Shown here piece by piece: positions 11,691-23,436 of a DNA stretch of 64,000 nucleotides. The stretch spans positions 4,448,001 to 4,512,000 of the forward strand of contig CAWIAD010000002.1 in NCBI GenBank assembly GCA_963833985.1. Reading direction: 5' to 3'. The notes beneath the pieces are model-generated. The model worked only from the letters and a program-made list of their open reading frames with translations, made no database searches and was not told the origin of the DNA. This DNA comes from an uncultured Planctomycetaceae bacterium (GTDB lineage: Bacteria; Planctomycetota; Planctomycetia; Isosphaerales; Isosphaeraceae). The position numbers and the translations under genes were made by a program. Positions within the stretch are counted from its first letter, which is position 1. Every line of letters begins with the position of its first letter.

Positions 11691-12504
11691 CCGCGCCCGT
11701 CCTTCCGCCCTTCCGCACCGGCAACCTGCGCCCTCCTGCGGCCAAAGGAAACAAGCGCTCCAAGGCCGATGACCAGCGACGCGGCAATGGCCTTGAGGGA
11801 CGAGGGCCAGACCGACCGGCTGGGCACCTGTGCCGCCACCGAGGACGGCAAACCGTAGGTCTCCGGCGGGTCCATCAGCAGGTAAAAGGCGTTCAATCCA
11901 CCCAGGATCTTCGTGTCCGCTCCGTACAGATAGGCGTCGCTGGAACCCTGGGAATGCAACTGATCCACGCGCTCCTGTGCCCGCTGCTTCAGCTCGGCGA
12001 TCGGCCCGAACTGGATCGACCGCGTGGGACACGCCTGGCGCAGGCGGGCACCAGTCCGTTTTGCAGCCGGTCATAGCAGAACGTGCACTTCTGCGCAATG
12101 TGCTTCTCCGCGCTGACGTGAATCACGCCGAACGGGCAAGCCGTGATGCAGTCGCGGCAGCCGTTGCAGACCGGCTCCTGGATGTACACGGTGTCATACT
12201 CGGTGCGGACGATCGACCCGGTCGGGCAAACTTCCAGGCAGGGCGCATGGACACAGTGCTTGCACACGTCGGACATCATCAGCCACCGCGCCTGGGTCCG
12301 ATCGGCGCTGAACTGCTCCACGAATTTGACGTGCCGCCAGTCGACATCCGACAGCGCCACCGTGTTGTCGTAGCTCAGGCCGGAGAGCGGCACGTGCCCG
12401 CCGTTCCGCGCCGGCAGGGCGTTCCACTGATGGCACGCCACCTCGCACGCCTTGCAGCCAATGCAGACGGTCGTGTCGGTGTAGAAGCCGACCGGCTCGG
12501 GCAT
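11687..12504 (-). CDS. fdnH: Formate dehydrogenase beta (4Fe-4S) subunit, 1-nt frameshift near 12038
   Basis: CIGCKACEVAC, CKHCVHAPCLEVCP, CNGCRDCITACP, KCTFCYDR..PACA; adding one C restores QACPTRSIQFG and joins ORF 11687-11968. Confidence 0.85.
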
Positions 12505-12800
12505 GCTTCCGCCTCCTCTCGGCACGGAACCGGGAACACCGAAGCTTCAAGAGCGCTCACGCAATTCCCGGCTTGATGACCTCAGACCAGGGCAAGTCAT
12601 TCTACCGGATCCGGTCCAGGGTGCGGACCACACTCTCCTCGAAAGGCACCCGACGAACCGCTCCGGTTGCCGGCCCGGGCCATGGACGGATCTGTCCGCG
12701 GCGGATGCTCAGGACGATGACCCTCGACCCCCAGCCTCAGTTTACGATGAAATGGTAAGGCATCGTCCCAGAACGCCCGTGGCGAACCAAGCGTAAACCC

Positions 12801-12876
12801 GTAGGGTGGGTCAGCGCAGCGCAACCCACTGGCTGGCTGTAATATGGTTCAGCGCAGCGCAACCCACCGGCTGGCT
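12801..12876 (+). repeat. GTAG-type REP palindrome plus a tandem partial copy
   Basis: GTAGGGTGGGTCAGCGCAGCGCAACCCAC at 12801; TCAGCGCAGCGCAACCCACnGGCTGGCTG repeated at ~12849. Confidence 0.7.
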
Positions 12877-12905: not shown

Positions 12906-14153
12906 TTACGCCAGGTTTCCGGACCGGGCGCCTCGTTCCCCATTCACGGGCCGGCTGGTTGTCGGGTTCGTCTTGTTCTGCAACAGGGCGCCGGGGTTGA
13001 TCCCGGCTGTGGGCGGGCCGCCGATCCAGAAGTCGAGCACCGGAGAGGAATGGTCCCCGAGCGCCAGAGCCGAGACGGCGGGCTCGCGGTGCACCGGCGA
13101 CGGAGCTGAAGCCGTGGACGGAGCCGCAGGGATGGGCCCCGAGCGTGGCACGGCGGGCGGGTCGGGCTCGGATCGCGGGACGGGCTCAGCCGGGTCGCCG
13201 CGTTCGGAACAGCGGACCATGGGGAGATCGCGCTCCTTCCGCAGCCGCTCCAGCTTGGTCCAGGCCGAGCGGAAGAGCCGATCGGCCGCCATTTCATAGC
13301 GGTGCAGCCGCGTCCCTTCGGGACCCAGGTCGATCTCCACTCCCGAGCGCCAGTCCTGCAACTGCGGCTGCTCGACCCCCTCCCACACCTCTTCATGCCG
13401 GCCTTCGAGCGCGGCCACTTCTTCCTCGATCATCTGCCGCAACCCGACCACACCGTCGTCCGAGCCCGTCCGGGCCTGCACGCGCAGCGCTTTCAGCCGG
13501 GCGGTCTGATGATCCAGGTGCCGCAGCTCCGCCGGCACCCCCAGCAGGTCCAGCGCCAGGGCCAGGTCGGCCTCGGTCCAGGTGCAGCCCGGCCCGCCCT
13601 CGTCGTCGCCGCTGAGCAGGCCGTTGCCCAGCAGCGTCCAGCGGCCGATGAGCCAGTCGCAGCCGGCCGAGCTGCGCATCAGGCGGAGCACGGTTCCCTC
13701 GGGATCGTCGCTCAGCTTGCGGCCGAGCTCGGCAGCCGCAAGCTGCTCATCCTGCTCCCAGTTGGCGAACCGGGCGGCATTCCTGCGGGCATCATGCCGG
13801 ATGATCCGCACGGCCAGCACCTCGCTCCTCCAGGCCCCCAGCGCCATCTGGCGCACCAGCTCGCGTTCGACCGTGTTGCGGGGCTTGAAAACGCGGGCAT
13901 ATTCGGCCGCGCGGCGTTCGACCTCCGCGGCCCCGTCCGGCGGCAGGACGATCCCCGCGCCGGTGAGCCCCTCCTTGCAGCCATTGCGCCGGCTGCGTTC
14001 CTTCCCCTGGTCCGAGGTCGGCCCACGCGACAGCCGCCCATTGGCCCGGCTGGCCTCGGCCCGTGCGGTGCTGGGACCAGGACAAATCGTCGTGGCGGCA
14101 GTGGCAGTGGCAGTGGAAGTGGAATCGAGCGGATCGGCGAGCGCGGCGAGCAT
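12906..14153 (-). CDS. Uncharacterised protein with an STGP-x-T-x-EGK-x-RS-x-x-NA-x-KHG-like N-terminal motif
   Basis: ASRANGRLSRGPTSDQGKERSRRNGCKEGLT; helical middle; Pro-rich tail ending QNKTNP; AAGGAG RBS. Confidence 0.8.
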   Translation of the reverse strand: MLAALADPLDSTSTATATAATTICPGPSTARAEASRANGRLSRGPTSDQGKERSRRNGCKEGLTGAGIVLPPDGAAEVERRAAEYARVFKPRNTVERELVRQMALGAWRSEVLAVRIIRHDARRNAARFANWEQDEQLAAAELGRKLSDDPEGTVLRLMRSSAGCDWLIGRWTLLGNGLLSGDDEGGPGCTWTEADLALALDLLGVPAELRHLDHQTARLKALRVQARTGSDDGVVGLRQMIEEEVAALEGRHEEVWEGVEQPQLQDWRSGVEIDLGPEGTRLHRYEMAADRLFRSAWTKLERLRKERDLPMVRCSERGDPAEPVPRSEPDPPAVPRSGPIPAAPSTASAPSPVHREPAVSALALGDHSSPVLDFWIGGPPTAGINPGALLQNKTNPTTSRPVNGERGARSGNLA

Positions 14154-14245
14154 CGGCGGCTCCTTGTCGAGGTGGAAGGGTTGTGGTGCCCCGGGGCTCG
14201 CTCCCCGCCCCGATTGATACGCCGGCCTCGTCGCCGGATTAAGCT

Positions 14246-14273
14246 ATTTTAAGCGATCAATTAGGAAAGTCAA
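14246..14273 (-). promoter_or_regulatory. Near-consensus sigma70 promoter of the 12906-14153 gene
   Basis: Minus strand TTGACT-16 nt-TAAAAT in an AT-rich patch ~90 nt upstream of ATG. Confidence 0.65.
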
Positions 14274-14335
14274 ATGGCGCTCGCTGAGCATATGGTTTGA
14301 TCCAAAGTTTGAAACCACGTCGCCGCGGCCGAAAA

Positions 14336-15006
14336 GCGCGGTTCGGACGGGGGAACCCTCCAACCTCGCCCGTCAGGGCGACCCGGTTCACGTGCAGGTC
14401 GGGCTCGCGCCCGAGGTTGGCGGCTGCGCCTGTCCGAACCACGGCCTGACGACCGTGGTCACGGTTTCCCGACTTCCGTGCTGTCTGGAACCGAGTGGTC
14501 CCAGCCGAGAAGCGCGGTCACCACGTCCCTCAGTCCGCTGAGCACGGCTTGACGACCGTGGTCACGGTGGCCGGACTACCGCGCTGCCTGGAACCGATTC
14601 GCCCCAGCAGAGAGGAGCCGTGAGCACGTCTGCCAGTCCGCTCACCACGTCCGTGCGATTGCGATGACCACGTCCGTGAGGGCGTGGTTCGGACGGGGGA
14701 ACCCTCCAACCTCGCCCGTGAGGGCGACCCGGTTCAAGTGCAGGTCGGGCTGACGCCCGAGGTTGGGGGCTGCGCCCGTCCGACCCACGGCCTGACGACC
14801 GTGGTCACCCTGGCCGGACTCCCGCGTCATCTGGAACGGGGTCGCCCCAGGCGAGAGGAGCGGTGACCCCGTCTGTCAGTCCGGTGACCATGTCCGTGAG
14901 GGCGTGGTTCGGACGGGGGAACCCCCAACCTCGCCCGTGAGGGCGATCCCGGCTGGCGGGTTGTCGCTGGCGGCTGGAACTGCCCACCGAGGCAGTGCTC
15001 CGCAAT
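14336..15006. repeat. Long-inverted-arm repeat array, block 1 (arms A1,B1,partial B,A2,B2,A3 plus tail)
   Basis: Arm A GTGACCACGTCCGTGAGGGCGTGGTTCGGACGGGGGAACCCTCCAACCTCGCCCGTGAGGGCGACC alternates with arm B, an imperfect reverse complement. Confidence 0.9.
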
Positions 15007-15319
15007 ACGTATCCTCCGCTTCTGCCCCAGTGCCTCAGCTTTCCCCTCCGGAGCGTCGTCGCTGCGCTCGACGCACGCGACGGTCTGACAGCGGTGGACA
15101 TCCTCATCGCAAACGAACTCTGGCCTCAGATGCAGGCGGTCTACCCGAAAACCGATATGATGTGGCCAGGCACGACAACAGCAGCGAACCGGGCATCACG
15201 AAAAGCGATCACGAGCAGGAAGGCCTTGCGAAAGCTATGGAAGGTGTCCCAGGAACTGGGTGTCACCGGAGTCTGCCGGCGGCACCACGCCAGGTTACCC
15301 TAGGCGAGAAGGGTGTGAC

Positions 15320-15889
15320 ATGAGCATGTCTCTAAAAAGACTGACCGTCGATCAGTACGAACAGATGGTCGCGAACGGAATCCTGCCCGAGACGAACCGC
15401 TTCGAGCTGATCGAAGGGAAGCTGGTGGAGAAGATGACGAAACGGCCAGCACATTCGGTCGTTGCCGGGCTCTGTATGGATGCAATCCAGGCGCTTCTCG
15501 CACCGGGCTGGCATATACGACCGGATCAACCGGTGCGCATCCCAAGCCAGCGCAGCGAGCCCGAGCCGGACATCGCGGTGGTGCGCGGCGAGCGAGCAAA
15601 GTATCTCGATCGTCACCCGGGCCCCGATGACGTCGCCCTGGTCGTGGAGATCGCACAGACCACGGCAGCCAAGGACCGGCGGCTGGCCCGAGTCTACGGC
15701 CCCGGCGGAATCCCTGTCTACTGGATCGTCAACCTTCCCAGGCGCCGGCTCGAAGTCTACGAAAACCCCGCTCATGGGCAATACCCGGCTCCCACGATTC
15801 TCGAAGAGGGAGAGTCTGTCGATCTGACCATCGGGGGTCGAGTTCTCGGCCAGATCGCCGTGGCCGACCTTCTGCCGAGGCGCCCATGA
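15320..15889 (+). CDS. Uma2 family (PD-(D/E)XK-like) endonuclease
   Basis: LTVDQYEQM, FELIEG, SEPEPDIAVV, LVVEIA, YGPGGIPVYWIVNL. Confidence 0.92.
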   Translation: MSMSLKRLTVDQYEQMVANGILPETNRFELIEGKLVEKMTKRPAHSVVAGLCMDAIQALLAPGWHIRPDQPVRIPSQRSEPEPDIAVVRGERAKYLDRHPGPDDVALVVEIAQTTAAKDRRLARVYGPGGIPVYWIVNLPRRRLEVYENPAHGQYPAPTILEEGESVDLTIGGRVLGQIAVADLLPRRP

Positions 15890-16057
15890 CGGCCGTTCTC
15901 TTGCACCACATCGTAGCGCTGTTGAAAGGACAGTATTGGGGGCCTCCCACATTTCGCGATCTCGGTGCGTGCATGGCCCCGTCTGTGGGCTGAAATCCGA
16001 TGTGTGTGGCCCCGCCTGATCGGGCCCCTTCTGATACGCCAACGCCGTGGTGGTGCT

Positions 16058-16299
16058 GATCGGGCTCACGCCCGAGGTTGGCGGCTGCGCCCGTCCGAAC
16101 CACGGCCTGACGACCGTGGTCACGGTTTCCCGACTTCTGTGCTGCCTCGAAATGAGCCGACCGAGCCGAAAGCGCGGTGACCACGTCCGTAAGGGCGTGG
16201 TTCGGACGGGGGAACCCCCCAACCTCGCCCGTGAGGGCGACCCGATCGGTGGCTCGTCGCTGGCGGCTGGAACTGCCCACCGGAGCAGTGCTCCGCAAT
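16058..16299. repeat. Long-inverted-arm repeat, block 2 (B3, 53-nt loop, A4, tail)
   Basis: B 16058-16123, A 16177-16242; tail GTCGCTGGCGGCTGGAACTGCCCACCG..GCAGTGCTCCGCAAT shared with 14963-15006. Confidence 0.9.
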
Positions 16300-16426
16300 G
16301 GGTGACCGCTTCTGTCTGTCCGCGGATCAGGATCGGAGTCGCGCGGCCGTCGGGATCTCGAACCGGCATGTTGTCGGATCGGTGTACAATAGGGGTGATC
16401 GCCCGAGTCGAAGGGAGCACGCCGCG

Positions 16427-16795
16427 ATGACGACCGTTGATTTTGAGCCGCTGACCGTCACGGTTCCCCTGCGCGAGGAGCCGCCGGGCGTTTTTCGCGT
16501 CGGTCAGAGCCGGGTCTTGCTGGAACTGGTCATTGACGCCTTCAAGAGTGGCGCGACGCCCGAAGCGATCGTGCAGTCCTACGACACCCTCGACCTCGCG
16601 GACGTCTACGCAGTGGTCACTCGATACCTCAGGGATCCAGCTCCGTTCGAGGACTACTTGAAGAAATGCGACGAAGCAGCCAGTGAAACGCGCCAGAAGA
16701 TCGAAGCGTTCCAGGGTCCCGAGGGGAACCTCCGCGCGCTGTTGATGGCACGAGCCAGGGCGAAGGGGCTGCTCGGTGATCAAGCTCGCCAGTGA
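16427..16795 (+). CDS. DUF433 protein (VapB45-like antitoxin)
   Basis: RVGQSRVLLELVIDAFKSGATPEAIVQSYDTLDLADVYAVVTRYL. Confidence 0.88.
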   Translation: MTTVDFEPLTVTVPLREEPPGVFRVGQSRVLLELVIDAFKSGATPEAIVQSYDTLDLADVYAVVTRYLRDPAPFEDYLKKCDEAASETRQKIEAFQGPEGNLRALLMARARAKGLLGDQARQ

Positions 16796-17126
16796 CGAGA
16801 ACTTCGACGGGGACATTGTCCGCGGACTGCTGCGCCGGATGCCTGAGCTGGATATCGTCCGCGTTCAGGACGCTGGTCTGGCGGGATCAGCAGATCTGGT
16901 CATCCTGGAGTGGGCGGCGAGTGAGGATCGAATTCTGCTGACTCATGATCGCCAGACCATGCCAGGTTTCGCCTACGACCTGGTCATCGCGGGCCGTCCA
17001 ATGCCCGGCCTCTTTCTGGTGAGCGACCGCATGACCAAGGGTCGAGCCATCGAGGAGCTGTTCTGGGCCGTGCACTGCTTCGTGGAAGAGGATTATCGTG
17101 ACCAGATCAAGTTCTTCCAGCACTGA
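16776..17126 (+). CDS. DUF5615 PIN-like toxin (VapC45-like)
   Basis: LASDENF, GLAGSADLVILEWAASEDRILLTHD; overlaps the DUF433 gene. Confidence 0.88.
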   Translation: MIKLASDENFDGDIVRGLLRRMPELDIVRVQDAGLAGSADLVILEWAASEDRILLTHDRQTMPGFAYDLVIAGRPMPGLFLVSDRMTKGRAIEELFWAVHCFVEEDYRDQIKFFQH

Positions 17127-17376
17127 CGGCGCTCCAGAGAAGGCCTGGGATCTGCTGTGCGGGCCTTCAGAGCGGGTCCGCTGAGCAGGCCATACAATCG
17201 CGCCAGGCGCTTCTGCAATCGTGGGCGGCTCTTTCCCGCTCAGAGCCGAATCGCTGCACGCGCAAGAGAAGGCGCACACGTTGAGGACAACAGTCGAGGA
17301 CTCGCCTGGAGCGGTGTCGCGGGCTGCGCCCGTCTGCTCGACAGATGCAGAGTGGTCCAACTGCCGTGGAGATGCA

Positions 17377-17585
17377 GGTCGGGCTCACGCCCGAAGTTGG
17401 CGGCTGCGCCCGTCCGAACCACGGCCTGAAGACCGTGGTCACGGTGGCCGGACTCCCCGGCCGTCTGGAACGGATTCGCCCCAGCCGTGAAACGTGGTCA
17501 CCACGTCAGTGCGATTGCGGTGACCACGTCCGTCAGGGCGTGGTTCGGACGGGGGAACCCTCCAACTTCGCCCGTGAGGGCGACC
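17377..17585. repeat. Long-inverted-arm repeat, block 3 (B4, 54-nt loop, 23-nt subunit, A5)
   Basis: B 17377-17442, A 17520-17585; same arm and loop sequences as blocks 1-2. Confidence 0.9.
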
Positions 17586-17801: not shown

Positions 17802-20714
17802 TTACTGGCCCTGGATCGGTGTCTGCGCGTCCTCCAGCCCAGCAGACGATGCCTTGACGGTGATCAGTCCGGGCTGTCCGGGGCGGCCCTTGACAATCAC
17901 CTGGCACAGTCCGTTGTACGCTCGACGCGCGCTGGCCTGGAACGGCTCGTGGCTGGTCGCGTCACCGTTCCCCACAGCCACGATCTCGCCCGGGCCCTCG
18001 ATCGCGAACTGAACCAGATTGTGGCTGCGCGGCACGGCCCGTCCCTCCGGATCGGCGACGGTCACCGTCACGAAGGCCAGGTCCTGGCCGTCACTCCTGA
18101 TCTCGGGTCGATCCACCGACAGCAAGAGCTGCGCAGGTGCTCCGGTGGTCTTCACCCGGTCCCGCGCCCATTCCTTGCCGTCGCGATACGCCACCACCTC
18201 CAGTGTGCCGGGCTGGTAGACCATGTCGTCCCAGCGCAAGCGATAGTCATGGGGTCCTCGCTTCTTCCGCCCCATCGAATTGCCGTTCAGGAACAGCTCG
18301 GCCTCGTCGCCGGATGTGTAAACATGAACGGGCGTGACCTGTCCCACGCGTTCGGGCCAGTTCCAGTGCGGCAAGAGATGCGCCATGGGCAGGTCCGGAC
18401 GCCACCGCGCCTGGTAGATGTAGAAACGGTCCTTCTTGAACCCGCAGAGATCGACGATGCCGAAGTAGCTGCTGGCCGAGGGGACCTTCAGCTTGCCCAG
18501 GGCGTCAAGCTGCTGCTTCATCTCGGCACGCTTTTGCGGGTCCGAGAAGTTCAGGAGGTTGGTGACGTCGTTGTTGTAAGGTGTGGGCTCACCGAGGTAG
18601 TCGAACCCGGTCCAGACGAACTCCCCAAAGAATGCCGGGTTGCGGTCGAGTGCCTCGAAGACCTCATCCGGCGGCTGGGCCCAGCCCGGGGCGTCCACGT
18701 CATATGATGAAACCTGGAAGTTGGCCTGCGAGTCCTTGCCGCGCTTCACGGGGAAAAAGTATTCCCCGCGTGAGCTGATGCAGGACGACGATTCCGACGT
18801 GTAGATGGGCTTTTGCTCGTTGCCGGGGTGGTCCAGGATCTCTTGGTATTTCCAGGTGGTGTAGTTGAGGCCGAAGACGTCGACCGCCGTCTGGAAACCG
18901 TTGATGCCAGCTCTCCAGTTGTTGCAGCCCGCCGTGACGGGCCGCGTGGGGTCCTCGGCGTGCACAATGTCGCGCAGGGGTTTGGCCAGCTCCGGTCCGT
19001 TCTGTTCGGCGATCTCGTTGCCGATGCTCCACATGATGACGCTGGGATGGTTCCGCTCGCGGCGGACCATGGCCTGCAAATCCCTGGCGTGCCACGCGTC
19101 GAAGAGCCGGCTGTAGTCATTGGCCGTCTTGCCCCGCTTCCAGCAGTCGAACGCCTCGACCATCACCAGGAAGCCCATGCGGTCGGCCAGCTCGAGCAGT
19201 TCGGGCGCGGGCGGGTTGTGCGAGGTCCGGAGTGCGTTGCCGCCCATCTCCTTCAAGATCTCGAGCTGGCGCTCGAGAGCACGGGTGTTGAATGCCGCAC
19301 CCAGCGCGCCCAGGTCGTGATGGTTGCACGTCCCCTTGAGGAAGACGGTCTTGCCGTTGAGCTTGAACCCGTCGCGCGGGGTGAACTCGATCGTGCGAAA
19401 GCCAAAGGGCTGGTCGTAGACGTCGACGACTCGTTCCCCTTGCCGCAGCGTGACCCGAGCGACATAGCGGTTCTGAGGAGAGGCGAGATCCCAGATCGCG
19501 GGCCGTGTCACGGTCAGCTCGCTCTCCATCTGCGATACGCCCGGTTGGATCGCTGTCCGGGCGGACGTCGTCTCCACGACCGCAGCACCGGTTGTACCGT
19601 CGGCCTGAATCGGATGGATGGACGTCCCGCCGGTGAGCTCCGCGACATCATTGCCCTGGTTCTCGAGCATCACGGTGAGATGGACCTTGCCGGCTTCCGT
19701 GGTGATCGAAGGCGTGGTCACATAAACGCCCCAGTGCGCCACGTGGACAGGAGACGTCTTCACCAGCCAGACGTTGCGATAGAGCCCCGCGCCGGGGTAC
19801 CAGCGCGAGCCCCAGTTCACGGTGTCCAGCCGCACGGCAAGAACATTGTCGGAGCCGAACTTCACGTGCCGGGTCAGTTCCAGGCGGAAGGGCTGGTAGC
19901 CGTAGGGCCATGTGCCCACGTACTGCCCGTTGAGCCAGACCCGGGCATGGGCCATGGCACCGTCGAAGTCGATGAAGATCCGCTTGCCCTGGTCGGATTC
20001 GGGAACCTGGAAGTGCTTACGATACCAGCCGATGCCCTTCCACGGCAGCTTACCCGTATCGCCGGGCAGGTCGTCGCGGAAGGGTCCTTCGATGCCCCAG
20101 TCATGGGGCACGTCGAGGGTGCGCCAGGCCGAGTCGTCAAAGCGGGGGTCCGCGGGCGTCTCGCCGGCAGCCACGCGCTGGTTGCGAATGGGCTGGCCGC
20201 CCTCATCGAACAATTCGACCTCGCGGATGCTGGCCCACCGGCCGCCGGGAACTCCCTTGACGGTCACGCGGACGTATCGCGTGCGGCCCGGCGTGAAGGG
20301 ACTCCAGGTTTTCCCGCTCGTGCTGGTCTCGATCGAGCTCTCGTAGCCGGGCTCGGAAAACTCCCAGTTGATGGCGACGCGGTTCAGGCTGCGGACGGCT
20401 CCCAGGTCGACCACGAGCCACTCGTTGGGGCTGCCGCTGGCAGCGCACCAGCGTGTCGCCGGATCGCCGTCCACCGCGTGCTGTGCCAGGTTCGCCTTCG
20501 AGGTTTCCTCGCTCGAAGCCGAGGCCGTGATGCTCCAGGCCTCGCCTCCCGGCTCCGGCCGTTGCGAGCGGTCCGGCATCGGCCCGAAGCGGGCGAACTT
20601 CCAGCCGGCGTTGAATGACTCACGGAGTCGAGGACTGGAAACCTCGTCCGACCATGCGGACGGCAGGAGCGAGACGGCCACCCAGAGGCACGCAAGCGGG
20701 CAAGACCCACGCAT
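17802..20714 (-). CDS. Secreted GH2 beta-galactosidase with an inserted F5/8 type C (discoidin) domain
   Basis: VPHDWGIEGPF, GIGWYRK, GAGLYRNV, RTSHNPP, NHPSVIMWSIGNE, FVWTGFDYLGEPTP; AVDGDPATRW discoidin insert; signal peptide. Confidence 0.93.
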   Translation of the reverse strand: MRGSCPLACLWVAVSLLPSAWSDEVSSPRLRESFNAGWKFARFGPMPDRSQRPEPGGEAWSITASASSEETSKANLAQHAVDGDPATRWCAASGSPNEWLVVDLGAVRSLNRVAINWEFSEPGYESSIETSTSGKTWSPFTPGRTRYVRVTVKGVPGGRWASIREVELFDEGGQPIRNQRVAAGETPADPRFDDSAWRTLDVPHDWGIEGPFRDDLPGDTGKLPWKGIGWYRKHFQVPESDQGKRIFIDFDGAMAHARVWLNGQYVGTWPYGYQPFRLELTRHVKFGSDNVLAVRLDTVNWGSRWYPGAGLYRNVWLVKTSPVHVAHWGVYVTTPSITTEAGKVHLTVMLENQGNDVAELTGGTSIHPIQADGTTGAAVVETTSARTAIQPGVSQMESELTVTRPAIWDLASPQNRYVARVTLRQGERVVDVYDQPFGFRTIEFTPRDGFKLNGKTVFLKGTCNHHDLGALGAAFNTRALERQLEILKEMGGNALRTSHNPPAPELLELADRMGFLVMVEAFDCWKRGKTANDYSRLFDAWHARDLQAMVRRERNHPSVIMWSIGNEIAEQNGPELAKPLRDIVHAEDPTRPVTAGCNNWRAGINGFQTAVDVFGLNYTTWKYQEILDHPGNEQKPIYTSESSSCISSRGEYFFPVKRGKDSQANFQVSSYDVDAPGWAQPPDEVFEALDRNPAFFGEFVWTGFDYLGEPTPYNNDVTNLLNFSDPQKRAEMKQQLDALGKLKVPSASSYFGIVDLCGFKKDRFYIYQARWRPDLPMAHLLPHWNWPERVGQVTPVHVYTSGDEAELFLNGNSMGRKKRGPHDYRLRWDDMVYQPGTLEVVAYRDGKEWARDRVKTTGAPAQLLLSVDRPEIRSDGQDLAFVTVTVADPEGRAVPRSHNLVQFAIEGPGEIVAVGNGDATSHEPFQASARRAYNGLCQVIVKGRPGQPGLITVKASSAGLEDAQTPIQGQ

Positions 20715-21058
20715 GAGAACGGTCCTTTCCGGATCGAGGAGCGGCGACCCAGTCCGCATCATAACCCGGTGCCGAGGGGCTCTCAACTCTTCGTCAGTGC
20801 GTCATTTTGGCGGCTGGCGAGTTTGCATGCGCTCCGGAACGATTGTGGCGCGCAGGCGGCCTCCGGCAGAATCCCCGCGCCGGAGGCCCGTGTCTTCTCG
20901 ATGATCAAGCTCAGGCCGATGGTCGCGTCGGGCCAGCCGGGTTGAGATTCCCGGTCCAGACGCTTCGGAAGCGCAATACCGAGGCCGCTCGGTCCCGGTG
21001 GGAGAAGCCCGGTTCCAGGCGGCCCGGAGACGTGCTGCGAGTGCAGGCACATCGCTTG

Positions 21059-21601
21059 TTACTTCTTGCGGACGTACCTGAACCCGCAGCACATGTCCTT
21101 CGCGGGCGCACCATTCACCCAGCCGGTGCCCTTCACCTCGATGTGGTCGTCATCAATGAACGTGAGGGTCATATCGTGCATGTGCCTGTCCTTAGTCGGG
21201 TCGAGGTTACGACCGCCGTGGAACTGAAAGACGATCTGGTTGGCCGACGAGTTCGGGTCGGATTTCAAGACGGGCTGGTTTCCCAGGATGCAGTAGTGCG
21301 TCAGGATCACGTCGGGGCCCTCGGCCGTGTAGACCGAGACCATTTCCCTGGGTGATCCCGGGAAGATCGTCTCGTGCACCGCGGTACCATTCGCGGTCAG
21401 CCTGACGACCGACGCGACATCGTCCGTCGGCTTGCCTTCGTCGTTGGCGACCACCCAGGTCCCCACCAGTTTCTTGATCTTCTCCAGGCCCGCGTTGGTG
21501 GGCGGGGGCGGCAGCTTGCCGCCGGATTTGTCATCGCCGTAGCTCGAAGTCGAAAGCGCAAGTCCAAGCAACAACCCGCACATCGCGAAGCAGCGCAGCA
21601 T
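21059..21601 (-). CDS. Secreted hypothetical protein (beta-barrel-like)
   Basis: GGAGG RBS, signal peptide MLRCFAMCGLLLGLALS; LVGTW, THYCILGNQP, HMH motifs. Confidence 0.75.
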   Translation of the reverse strand: MLRCFAMCGLLLGLALSTSSYGDDKSGGKLPPPPTNAGLEKIKKLVGTWVVANDEGKPTDDVASVVRLTANGTAVHETIFPGSPREMVSVYTAEGPDVILTHYCILGNQPVLKSDPNSSANQIVFQFHGGRNLDPTKDRHMHDMTLTFIDDDHIEVKGTGWVNGAPAKDMCCGFRYVRKK

Positions 21602-22062
21602 CTCGTTCCTCCACAAAAATGTGATGTTCAATCTCGATCCGGGCAGTGATCTCGTCACGCCACCCTCATGACGAACGGGACGGCAACCATTCGACTGGAA
21701 GTGCAGCGAATTTCCAAGTTTTTCTGGAGACGGGCCAGGATCCTGTGGAAGGTGCAGTCGTCTCCGCACTGCGTCGACCAGAATTCGGCTTGGCATTGAG
21801 AGCGAGGCACGTCGGCCGAACGCAATCCGCGATCTCCGAGGCCGCTCCCCACAGGAAACTCGAGTCGTTCCGGGCCTCGCATGCCGCCAGAGACCAAAAC
21901 GCGGACCGTCGAGACGGGTGTCGCGCCAACGATCAGCAGGGCTCGAGAACTCCATCCCTGATGGTATGAAAGCTCGGTCGCCGTCATCAGCGGCCACTGT
22001 GTTACACTTGATTTGAAACGGCGTCACGCGCTGCTTCTCCATCCTCCGAGCAAGGCCGAGCG

Positions 22063-23436
22063 ATGCAACTGATCAAACCATCCGAAATCAAGGTCGACGC
22101 GGTGACGACCGAAATGCTTCGAGACATCGATGAGCTGGCTCATCAGGTGAATGACATCCGCCCACTGAATGACGACGTGCTCCGGCAGGTCAAGGAGGAG
22201 TTGATTGCAGAACGCGTCTTCAGTAGCAACGCCATCGAAGGCAGCACTCTCACCTTGCGCGAAACGCGACTGATCCTTCAAGAACGAACGTTCCTTGACA
22301 ACCGGAGAAAACGAGAGGCTCAGGAGGCTCTGAACCTTGGCAAGGCCGCGAACCGGGTCGAGGAGCTTTTGAACTCGGAAGGAGCATGGCACGACCGCTC
22401 GACGTTCTGTGGAGTGCACGAAATCCTGATGAAAGGCGTTAACGATCGGATCGCGGGTGTGCTTCGGAACAGCGCTGTGATGGTCCGTGGCGCCAAGCAG
22501 CAGCCCCCTGGCGAGGAAAAGGTCGCCGGCCTCGTCGATCAATTCCTTGGCGACTTGAAGGAAGCCGATCCCGAGCTGAACGGAGTCGTTCGAGCGGCCT
22601 GGGCGCACTGGGCGATTGCCCGGATTCATCCGTTTGAGGATGGCAACGGCCGGATGGCCAGGCTCTGGCAGGACCTGCTCCTGCTTCGCTCTCGGTTCAC
22701 CGTGGCAATTATCAGGCCTCAGGATCGTCAGGCCTACCTTGATTCGCTCAGCCAGGCAGACGAAAACGAGTTTAACCCCCTGCTTCAACTGGTCTGCCAG
22801 AGGGCCAAGAGCACGCTACAAGTTTATCTCACCGCTCAGGAGGCCGCCGACGAGTTGCAAGGGTGGGCGTCGGAACTTGTCGGTGAATCCGCCGTCCGCG
22901 ACGCCGAGCGCAGGAAAGCGGAATACTACCGATGGCGTCATGCCGTCGAGCAACTTCAAGACTCCTTCGATCGGTGCGCATCGCTCGTCAATCGCAGCAG
23001 CGACCGAACGCTCGAAGTGCAGGTTCAAAGCTACGATATCATTGATCAGCCGACGTGGGAGACCTTGCTTTCCGGAGGCAGTGCAAAAAAGACGTGGTTT
23101 TTCAGGATCCACTTCCGCAAGCATCACAAGGTCGTCTGGTTCTATTTTTACTTTGGGCGGCACTACCGGCACGCAGACGATCCACTGGTTGAGGACCAGG
23201 GCCCTTTCGTCTCTATTCTCATCAGTCAGCAGCAACCCGGCGATGAGCTGGCTGTCCGGCTTGATGAAATGGAAAACAGCCCCATATTGCTCAGGGAACT
23301 GCTCGTGCATGAGCGGCAGATCGTACGCCGACGCCTTGACCTCGTTGAGTCGCGGATGGTCTACGACCATGGTGTTAAGCCCATCGATGTCGCGAAGGAC
23401 TTTTATGAGAATGTGATTATTCACATATTGGGATAG
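22063..23436 (+). CDS. Fic family protein with C-terminal extension
   Basis: HPFEDGNGRMAR catalytic motif; N-terminal SNAIEG inhibitory motif; visibly lower GC. Confidence 0.92.
   Translation: MQLIKPSEIKVDAVTTEMLRDIDELAHQVNDIRPLNDDVLRQVKEELIAERVFSSNAIEGSTLTLRETRLILQERTFLDNRRKREAQEALNLGKAANRVEELLNSEGAWHDRSTFCGVHEILMKGVNDRIAGVLRNSAVMVRGAKQQPPGEEKVAGLVDQFLGDLKEADPELNGVVRAAWAHWAIARIHPFEDGNGRMARLWQDLLLLRSRFTVAIIRPQDRQAYLDSLSQADENEFNPLLQLVCQRAKSTLQVYLTAQEAADELQGWASELVGESAVRDAERRKAEYYRWRHAVEQLQDSFDRCASLVNRSSDRTLEVQVQSYDIIDQPTWETLLSGGSAKKTWFFRIHFRKHHKVVWFYFYFGRHYRHADDPLVEDQGPFVSILISQQQPGDELAVRLDEMENSPILLRELLVHERQIVRRRLDLVESRMVYDHGVKPIDVAKDFYENVIIHILG

Follow-up and report, generated by a model that had tools for sequence, protein, structure and literature searches.

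What is the array of alternating, inverted arms that surrounds small genes in this stretch of DNA? The window (the whole stretch analysed, 64,000 nt from an uncultured bacterium of the Planctomycetaceae) carries, between positions 14336 and 17585, two types of arm of about 66 nt, A and B. The first-pass annotation regarded them as a possible recombination or capture site of an undescribed cassette system bracketing toxin-antitoxin-type genes. We come to another answer. A single 66-nt, three-hairpin unit resembling a repetitive extragenic palindrome (REP) occurs here in two subtypes, one being arm A and the other the reverse complement of arm B, and this unit is probably bound as single-stranded DNA (ssDNA) and spread by a single-copy IS200-type Y1 transposase, TnpA, encoded in the same genome. 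In what follows, G000 is the genome holding the window, other G numbers are related genomes, L numbers are loci, and C1 and C2 are contigs. The repeat units of the window are the following:

14336..14383, plus strand: unit A1, partial, without hairpin 1
14397..14462, minus strand: unit B1, subtype with TCGGGC/GCCCGA in hairpin 3
14543..14565, minus strand: partial B, hairpin 1 only
14664..14729, plus strand: unit A2, subtype with TCGCCC/GGGCGA
14743..14808, minus strand: unit B2, paired tail-to-tail with A2 over a 13-nt loop
14884..14949, plus strand: unit A3; a 98.3% duplicated block stops 2 nt beyond it
14950..15006, plus strand: 3' linker, common to 16243-16299
16058..16123, minus strand: unit B3
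16177..16242, plus strand: unit A4, paired head-to-head with B3 over a 53-nt spacer
17377..17442, minus strand: unit B4
17520..17585, plus strand: unit A5

All arm positions, partial copies included, agree with those annotated at first. The A copies are 95% alike among themselves and the B copies 92–95%, against 77–82% for A compared with reverse-complemented B. Ten differences are fixed between the three A and four B copies compared, and B is thus indeed an imperfect reverse complement of A with recurring mismatches. The A-to-B loop of 13 nt was found in both cases measured. The B-to-A loop had been described as a conserved 53–54 nt, which is true of its core; in full, one spacer is 53 nt long, and the two others (75 and 77 nt) consist of a 54-nt core and a 21–23-nt degenerate copy of the A 5' end.

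Behind a GTGA or ATGG foot, the unit itself forms three hairpins: the first has 8 bp and a GTNA loop, the second 3–5 bp and a GNA-type loop, and the third 6 bp and again a GTNA loop. Among 100 parsed units the foot on the GTNA-loop strand is ATGG in 57 and GTGA in 28; the absence of a REP-type GT[AG]G foot, already remarked upon, is correct for this strand, and GTAG at the tnpA locus of G000 occurs on the opposite strand only. When 21 units from the window and from transposase loci were aligned, 98.3% of the paired cells could pair and 8 of the 17 pairs showed changes on both sides. The covariation score was reached by none of 500 shuffles, a test that is inflated by the relatedness of the units and for a structure read from the same 21 sequences, and slid controls dropped to 22–45% paired. 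Nine of the ten fixed A/B differences lie in stems and keep the pairing inside the arm, and the tenth falls on the free base in the GNA loop. This pairing within each arm accounts for the recurring G:G and C:C mismatches. The earlier proposal of a selected ssDNA or RNA hairpin therefore stands as far as a selected single-stranded structure with compensatory covariation is concerned, but the covariation is found within the arms, in three short hairpins, and not in one long A:B hairpin.

Which nucleic acid is folded is suggested by the loops. Those of hairpin 1 all fit cGNNAg (100 of 100, the parser having required G..A), and 38 of the 100 are not GNRA. According to PMC3201870, DNA hairpins with GNA triloops are very stable, and the title of a reference cited there calls d(cGNNAg) a stable DNA tetraloop. 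Since the loops fit cGNNAg and GNA rather than GNRA, DNA is indicated rather than RNA, and the sequence points to single-stranded DNA of the strand on which A reads plus and B reads minus. The arms could instead be an RNA element, such as a terminator, a stabiliser or a small RNA, kept for the fold of its transcript: the long A:B pairing is stable in silico, and REPs can act in mRNA, as described in PMC8266576. Against this are the loop motifs, the confinement of covariation within arms, the absence of any Rfam match for the arms at E<=1, and the position of units on either side of a gene for a transposase of single-stranded DNA. We judge such an RNA element to be very improbable; a secondary role in RNA would leave the origin of the arms unaffected.

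The units are scattered over the whole genome. BLAST of the arms, proposed in the first-pass annotation as a check, finds 122 copies in G000, and a broader hidden Markov model profile 128 in 56 clusters; a backwards control pattern had no match, and the repeat is far more frequent than chance would give. By gene calls made with our own crude caller, 79% of random positions fall in genes, but only one of the 128 units has most of its length in one. The inverted dimers combine both subtypes in 12 of 12 cases in G000, although one subtype makes up 77 of 100 units. Mixed subtypes were likewise seen in 23 of 23 dimers of G253 (counted by eye in the first 100 of 148 listed copies), and the two units flanking tnpA differ in subtype wherever both arms are complete. 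We found no description of this 66-nt repeat in the literature searched or by motif search of Table S1 of Quentin, with the reservation that figures and supplements outside the search could hold one.

The candidate for the mobilising enzyme is encoded at a single locus:

G000:C2:1859854-1860387: tnpA, single-copy gene for an IS200-type Y1 (HUH) transposase

G000 has seven genes with the PF01797 domain, and units lie within 3 kb of tnpA only and of none of the other six. At tnpA, one unit is upstream on the same strand, one is inverted downstream, and one is found further upstream. The product, of 177 aa, scores 95 bits on NF033573 (cut-off 55) and 27 bits on the RAYT model NF047646 (cut-off 80), and the closest solved structures are IS200/IS605 transposases. 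Judged from its sequence, the enzyme is a class 1 (IS200-type) protein, neither a RAYT nor a member of class 3. With its close homologues it forms a compact clade (54 protein clusters), which a large score gap separates from the remaining IS200 proteins; those homologue records that carry names are from Isosphaeraceae or Planctomycetota. The Y---Q motif (YLGRQ in G000) is present in 48 of the 54 proteins and Y----Q in none, 6 being unparsed. An upstream unit is present at all 10 clade loci counted (L001, L009, L013/14, L015, L164 and L016-L020, with L017 nearly identical to L019), and the downstream unit is full at 9 and truncated at L015. No flanking units were found at three distant IS200 loci and one weak match. 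At L013/14, tnpA is located within a strictly alternating array that resembles the one in the window.

Some tnpA loci show further particularities. At L001 (850-971, 1281-1400 and 1975-2064), stacks of 15–17-nt tandem copies lie directly 3' of units; they begin in the last hairpin arm and may mark the cut site. The near-identical loci L017 (2533-2796) and L019 differ by a 260-nt stretch with one unit, and L019 runs on into an inverted copy of the upstream region, which is either a real rearrangement or a misassembly.

The association holds at the level of genomes. Among 121 genomes of the family, many of them incomplete and, being related, not giving independent counts, the enzyme is found in 5. 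The repeat occurs in 19; these comprise every genome with the enzyme, among which are those with the three highest copy numbers (148, 90 and 29), and none of the 102 repeat-free genomes has the enzyme. Each of the 5 enzyme-bearing genomes has one tnpA locus, two matches in G258 being one locus at overlapping contig ends. The same methyltransferase gene adjoins tnpA downstream in L001, L016 and L017, with a synonymous divergence (dS) of tnpA from G000 above 1. Of 21 pairs compared, dS could be computed for 20, and in all of these the nonsynonymous divergence (dN) is much smaller, which indicates purifying selection. A single locus, synteny and dN far below dS are traits of a domesticated enzyme. 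In a quick tree of 89 proteins the clade has a support of 100; it stands apart from RAYT and class 3 and is sister to typical IS200 enzymes with a support of 88, for a threshold of 95 given by the tool.

How does this compare with known systems? It is a REPtron-like system whose mixed-subtype dimers are similar to bacterial interspersed mosaic elements (BIMEs). As in the accounts of the E. coli REPtron in PMC3333891 and PMC8266576, a single-copy Y1/HUH gene is flanked by inverted hairpin repeats, more than 100 intergenic copies occur in inverted dimers and arrays, two-subtype dimers (there y with z1 or z2) are found in tandem arrays, and the repeat persists in genomes without a match to the enzyme. 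As those accounts present it, however, the RAYT is of class 2 (Y---NP) and a REP has one hairpin in 20–50 nt, whereas the enzyme here is of class 1 (Y---Q, IS200 model) and its unit has three hairpins in 66 nt and no 5' GT[AG]G foot. From their published descriptions, two IS200-related groups are also similar. TnpA-Y1 subclass 1.2 (Quentin 2018, PMC6006769) is IS200-related, of low copy number and does not behave as an insertion sequence (IS), and its Y---Q--HH resembles the Y---Q---H found here; IS200 Group 3 (Bertels 2017, PMC5581495) has no duplicates and abundant flanking 16-mers. In contrast to subclass 1.2 as described there, our enzyme has W[AGST] instead of WQ, NHVH, Y---QDEKH and an extra conserved N-terminal arm; it is 22% identical to the protein of L136, forms a separate branch in the quick tree, and its repeat is unrelated in sequence. 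Quentin (PMC6006769) lists no REP for subclass 1.2. We also noticed 1.2-type IS200-like genes with inverted multi-hairpin arms of unrelated sequence in G168 and G162 (L136:1380-1480 and 1930-2030; flanks of L137).

Like our system, TnpA-Y1 class 3 as reported in PMC6006769 occurs in Planctomycetes; its protein has NHVH and about 178 aa, and its hairpins are of high copy number, with GTNA loops and a stem of 8 positions that begins with CC. Compared with that description, the enzyme here lacks Y----Q, and the unit lacks the CnGA foot and has perfect stems and three hairpins. Membership in class 3 was rejected, as a class-3-type protein of G162 gives just a 43-residue match of 25 bits. The class-3 repeat motif has no match in G000; in viral contigs it matches 74 loci, with no transposase or gene of the 415-aa family discussed below. 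Finally, IS200/IS605 subclass 1.1 (IS608 and ISDra2; PDB 2vhg and 2xm3) has the same HuH and Y---Q core, gives the best matches among solved structures, and is the sister group in the quick tree. Unlike such elements, tnpA is single-copy and syntenic, near-identical copies at unrelated sites were not found in the 5 genomes, and its ends are inverted copies of one unit, where an IS has distinct left and right ends on one strand. No tnpB-sized neighbour of tnpA was seen in the open reading frame (ORF) lists of the loci.

By analogy with TnpA-REP acting on BIMEs, we infer that the enzyme mobilises the units. It would recognise the strand with the GTNA and GNA loops, folded as ssDNA, and its catalytic tyrosine would nick the flanking linkers, after which the ends would be rejoined. 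Units and dimers could in this way be excised, inserted or locally amplified, which would give alternating arrays with partial end copies. The dimers may have arisen from the left and right arms of tnpA, without the gene between them, and mixing of subtypes would preserve the hairpins of each arm yet avoid a perfect long palindrome. Ragged ends and partial end copies fit such nicking and rejoining. In the comparison of unit-bearing with unit-free paralogues the junctions are ragged, and several of those listed, without a statistical test, fall at or near ATC/TC. As regards a miniature inverted-repeat transposable element, the ends of the units are ragged, and among the paralogues examined there was no clean pair of empty and filled sites for a target-site duplication.

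Several observations weigh against mobilisation by TnpA. The paralogue comparison yielded no clean empty versus filled unit site. No enzyme match is found in 14 of the 19 repeat-bearing genomes, including G004, which is 99% complete and has 24 copies. Subtype A of the window differs from the subtype flanking the present tnpA copy. A folding model gives the long A:B hairpin −55.5 kcal/mol, versus −27.1 for hairpins 1 and 3 of both arms (hairpin 2 omitted). Not only the genomes but also the arrays are related, so that counts are not independent. Moreover, 32 of the 56 clusters in G000 lie beside the 415-aa family or beside transposase pieces similar to subclass 2.3, and many copies may thus be hitchhikers. 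Truncated pieces of such Y1 transposases, bracketed by units, were seen at G000:C2:4163330-4164400, C2:495674-496266 and C1:2927575-2928168, where several junctions fall at GATC.

The 415-aa family is represented in the window next to the array, together with a REP of another kind:

12906..14153, minus strand: 415-aa gene of an unnamed multicopy family, with an N-terminal NRRNAxKSTGP-type motif
12801..12829, plus strand: GTAG-footed REP of another family, like the REPs beside a RAYT gene in L007

The stretch 12907-14951 of the window matches G000:C2:1804550-1806586 at 98.3% over 2,046 nt. It extends from the stop codon of the 415-aa gene to 2 nt past A3 and does not include the Uma2 or DUF433 blocks further right; from this similarity, a block of about 2 kb, the 415-aa gene with the left array, has been duplicated recently. 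The family has 16 copies in G000, in two expanded subfamilies of 11 and 5, and the 11 near-identical copies sit in blocks of 1.5–2.5 kb; up to 79 matches were found in G015. The protein has no Pfam or NCBIfam match. A model of its N-terminal domain (pLDDT 81, pTM 0.47) is all helical. Neither PDB nor BFVD gave a similar fold at E<=0.001, there was no useful PHROG match, and no transposase fold was seen. A likeness to the terminase small subunit was considered and not confirmed, there being no significant fold match.

Could the units then be passengers of the 415-aa family, or of another Y1 enzyme (subclass 2.3-like or RAYT), their link with the IS200-type gene being historical? In G000 a unit lies 255–584 nt upstream, always in the same orientation, of 15 of the 16 family members, the gene and the array were duplicated together, and 20 of the 56 clusters are within 600 nt of subclass-2.3-like transposase sequence. 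Elsewhere, however, the link to the family is weak: a unit is beside 1 of 23 loci, and counts made by eye gave 2 of 16 matches for G004 and 1 of 8 loci for two contigs of G253. G253 holds 148 unit copies. The IS200-type clade is flanked at 10 of 10 loci, and the other six Y1 genes of G000 at none within 3 kb. That the units spread mainly as passengers seems very unlikely to us, and hitchhiking with the 415-aa family and the subclass-2.3-like pieces may add to the copy number of units spread by TnpA.

The genes between the blocks of arms, all on the plus strand as first annotated and confirmed by Pfam, are:

15320..15889, plus strand: Uma2-family gene (PF05685), likely bystander
16427..16795, plus strand: DUF433 gene, likely bystander
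16776..17126, plus strand: DUF5615 gene, likely bystander

We take DUF433 to be of antitoxin type and DUF5615 to be a PIN-like toxin-type protein. In integron attC arrays, too, imperfect hairpins separate small genes, some of which are toxin-antitoxin genes, and the arms of the window might be recombination sites, attC-like or driven by TnpA, that capture and shuffle such genes. The arrangements A3-[Uma2]-B3 and A4-[DUF433-DUF5615]-B4 are tail-to-tail like unit-[tnpA]-unit, both bracketed blocks open with the same linker, and the duplicate array diverges from the window 2 nt past A3. DUF433 genes show a mild enrichment in G000, 3 of 14 being within 3 kb of a unit for 0.5 expected (one is the window locus), and a Uma2 gene is upstream of the tnpA arrays in L017. 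TnpA-REP has moreover been proposed, in PMC3333891, to sequester or carry flanking genes.

Most counts speak otherwise. Uma2 genes within 1 kb of a unit number 2 of 61 in G000 and 0 of 47 on the two contigs of G253 whose lists are complete, the expected numbers being 1.0 and 0.9, and 1 of 11 DUF5615 genes in G000 is within 3 kb. Bracketing of Uma2-, DUF433- or DUF5615-type genes on both sides is confined to the window locus. Units were found near none of 29 DUF433 homologue loci, many from repeat-bearing genomes, and near 1 of 16 Uma2 homologues, on one side only. The genes next to the clusters are of no less than average size, those below 200 aa making up 21 of 112 versus 28%. Unlike those of integron arrays, the arms alternate in orientation and are dispersed genome-wide without a link to cassette genes; the best match to PRK15417, which we take to be a model of the integron integrase, is 65 bits for a cut-off of 435.

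Orthologous fdnG-fdnH loci were proposed earlier as a place to look for gain or loss of cassettes. The site compared here, which lies between fdnH and the GH2 gene, gives cassettes no support. It is empty in G003 and G007 (about 80 nt), and in G002 (L096:2010-5773) it holds 3.8 kb of other small unannotated genes and no unit. This site thus collects small genes in the absence of arms, and with the 92-nt duplicate of the fdnH start also present there in G002, it is an insertion hotspot. Some further features of this region were noted. The formate dehydrogenase genes of the window are not contiguous: between them (17802-23436) lie a GH2 glycosidase gene, one of unknown kind and one with a Fic domain, and the GH2 gene adjoins fdnH in G003 and G007 as well. 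At 11830-12525 the fdnH frame seems to shift near its 3' end relative to homologues, possibly by an assembly error: the ORF has 178 aa, the homologue match stops at residue 168, and DNA similarity runs on.

A capture site for small toxin-antitoxin genes is thus very unlikely, and the array is unlikely to be the undescribed cassette system suggested at first: Uma2 is not enriched and homologues lack arms. Scatter over the genome with no link to such genes is what the first-pass annotation itself named as speaking against that proposal, and it is largely what we find. Its mention of a REP doublet forming hairpins (REPIN) pointed in the right direction; a cognate IS200-type transposase is encoded elsewhere in the genome. 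In terms of TnpA-spread units, the region from fdnH to the GH2 gene would be a variable site where an array stands upstream of the 415-aa gene, itself mobile, and further dimers surround the Uma2 gene and the DUF433-DUF5615 pair. These three genes are likely bystanders and not captured cassettes, and most likely arrived independently of the arms.

A wider role may be considered, in which a separate domestication of IS200, sister to true ISs, has produced a gene-moving engine whose mixed-subtype arms mobilise whatever is between or beside them. We regard this as unlikely. If true, it would explain the 15 arm-linked copies of the enzyme-less 415-aa-family gene and the two arm-bracketed loci of toxin-antitoxin type. 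PMC5581495 and PMC6006769 both raise the questions of how REPs propagate and of a single or repeated domestication of IS200 transposases. The system described here, with a class 1 enzyme close to true IS200, a long and strongly covarying substrate and obligatory mixed dimers, would make recognition, strand choice and cut site accessible to a simple assay.

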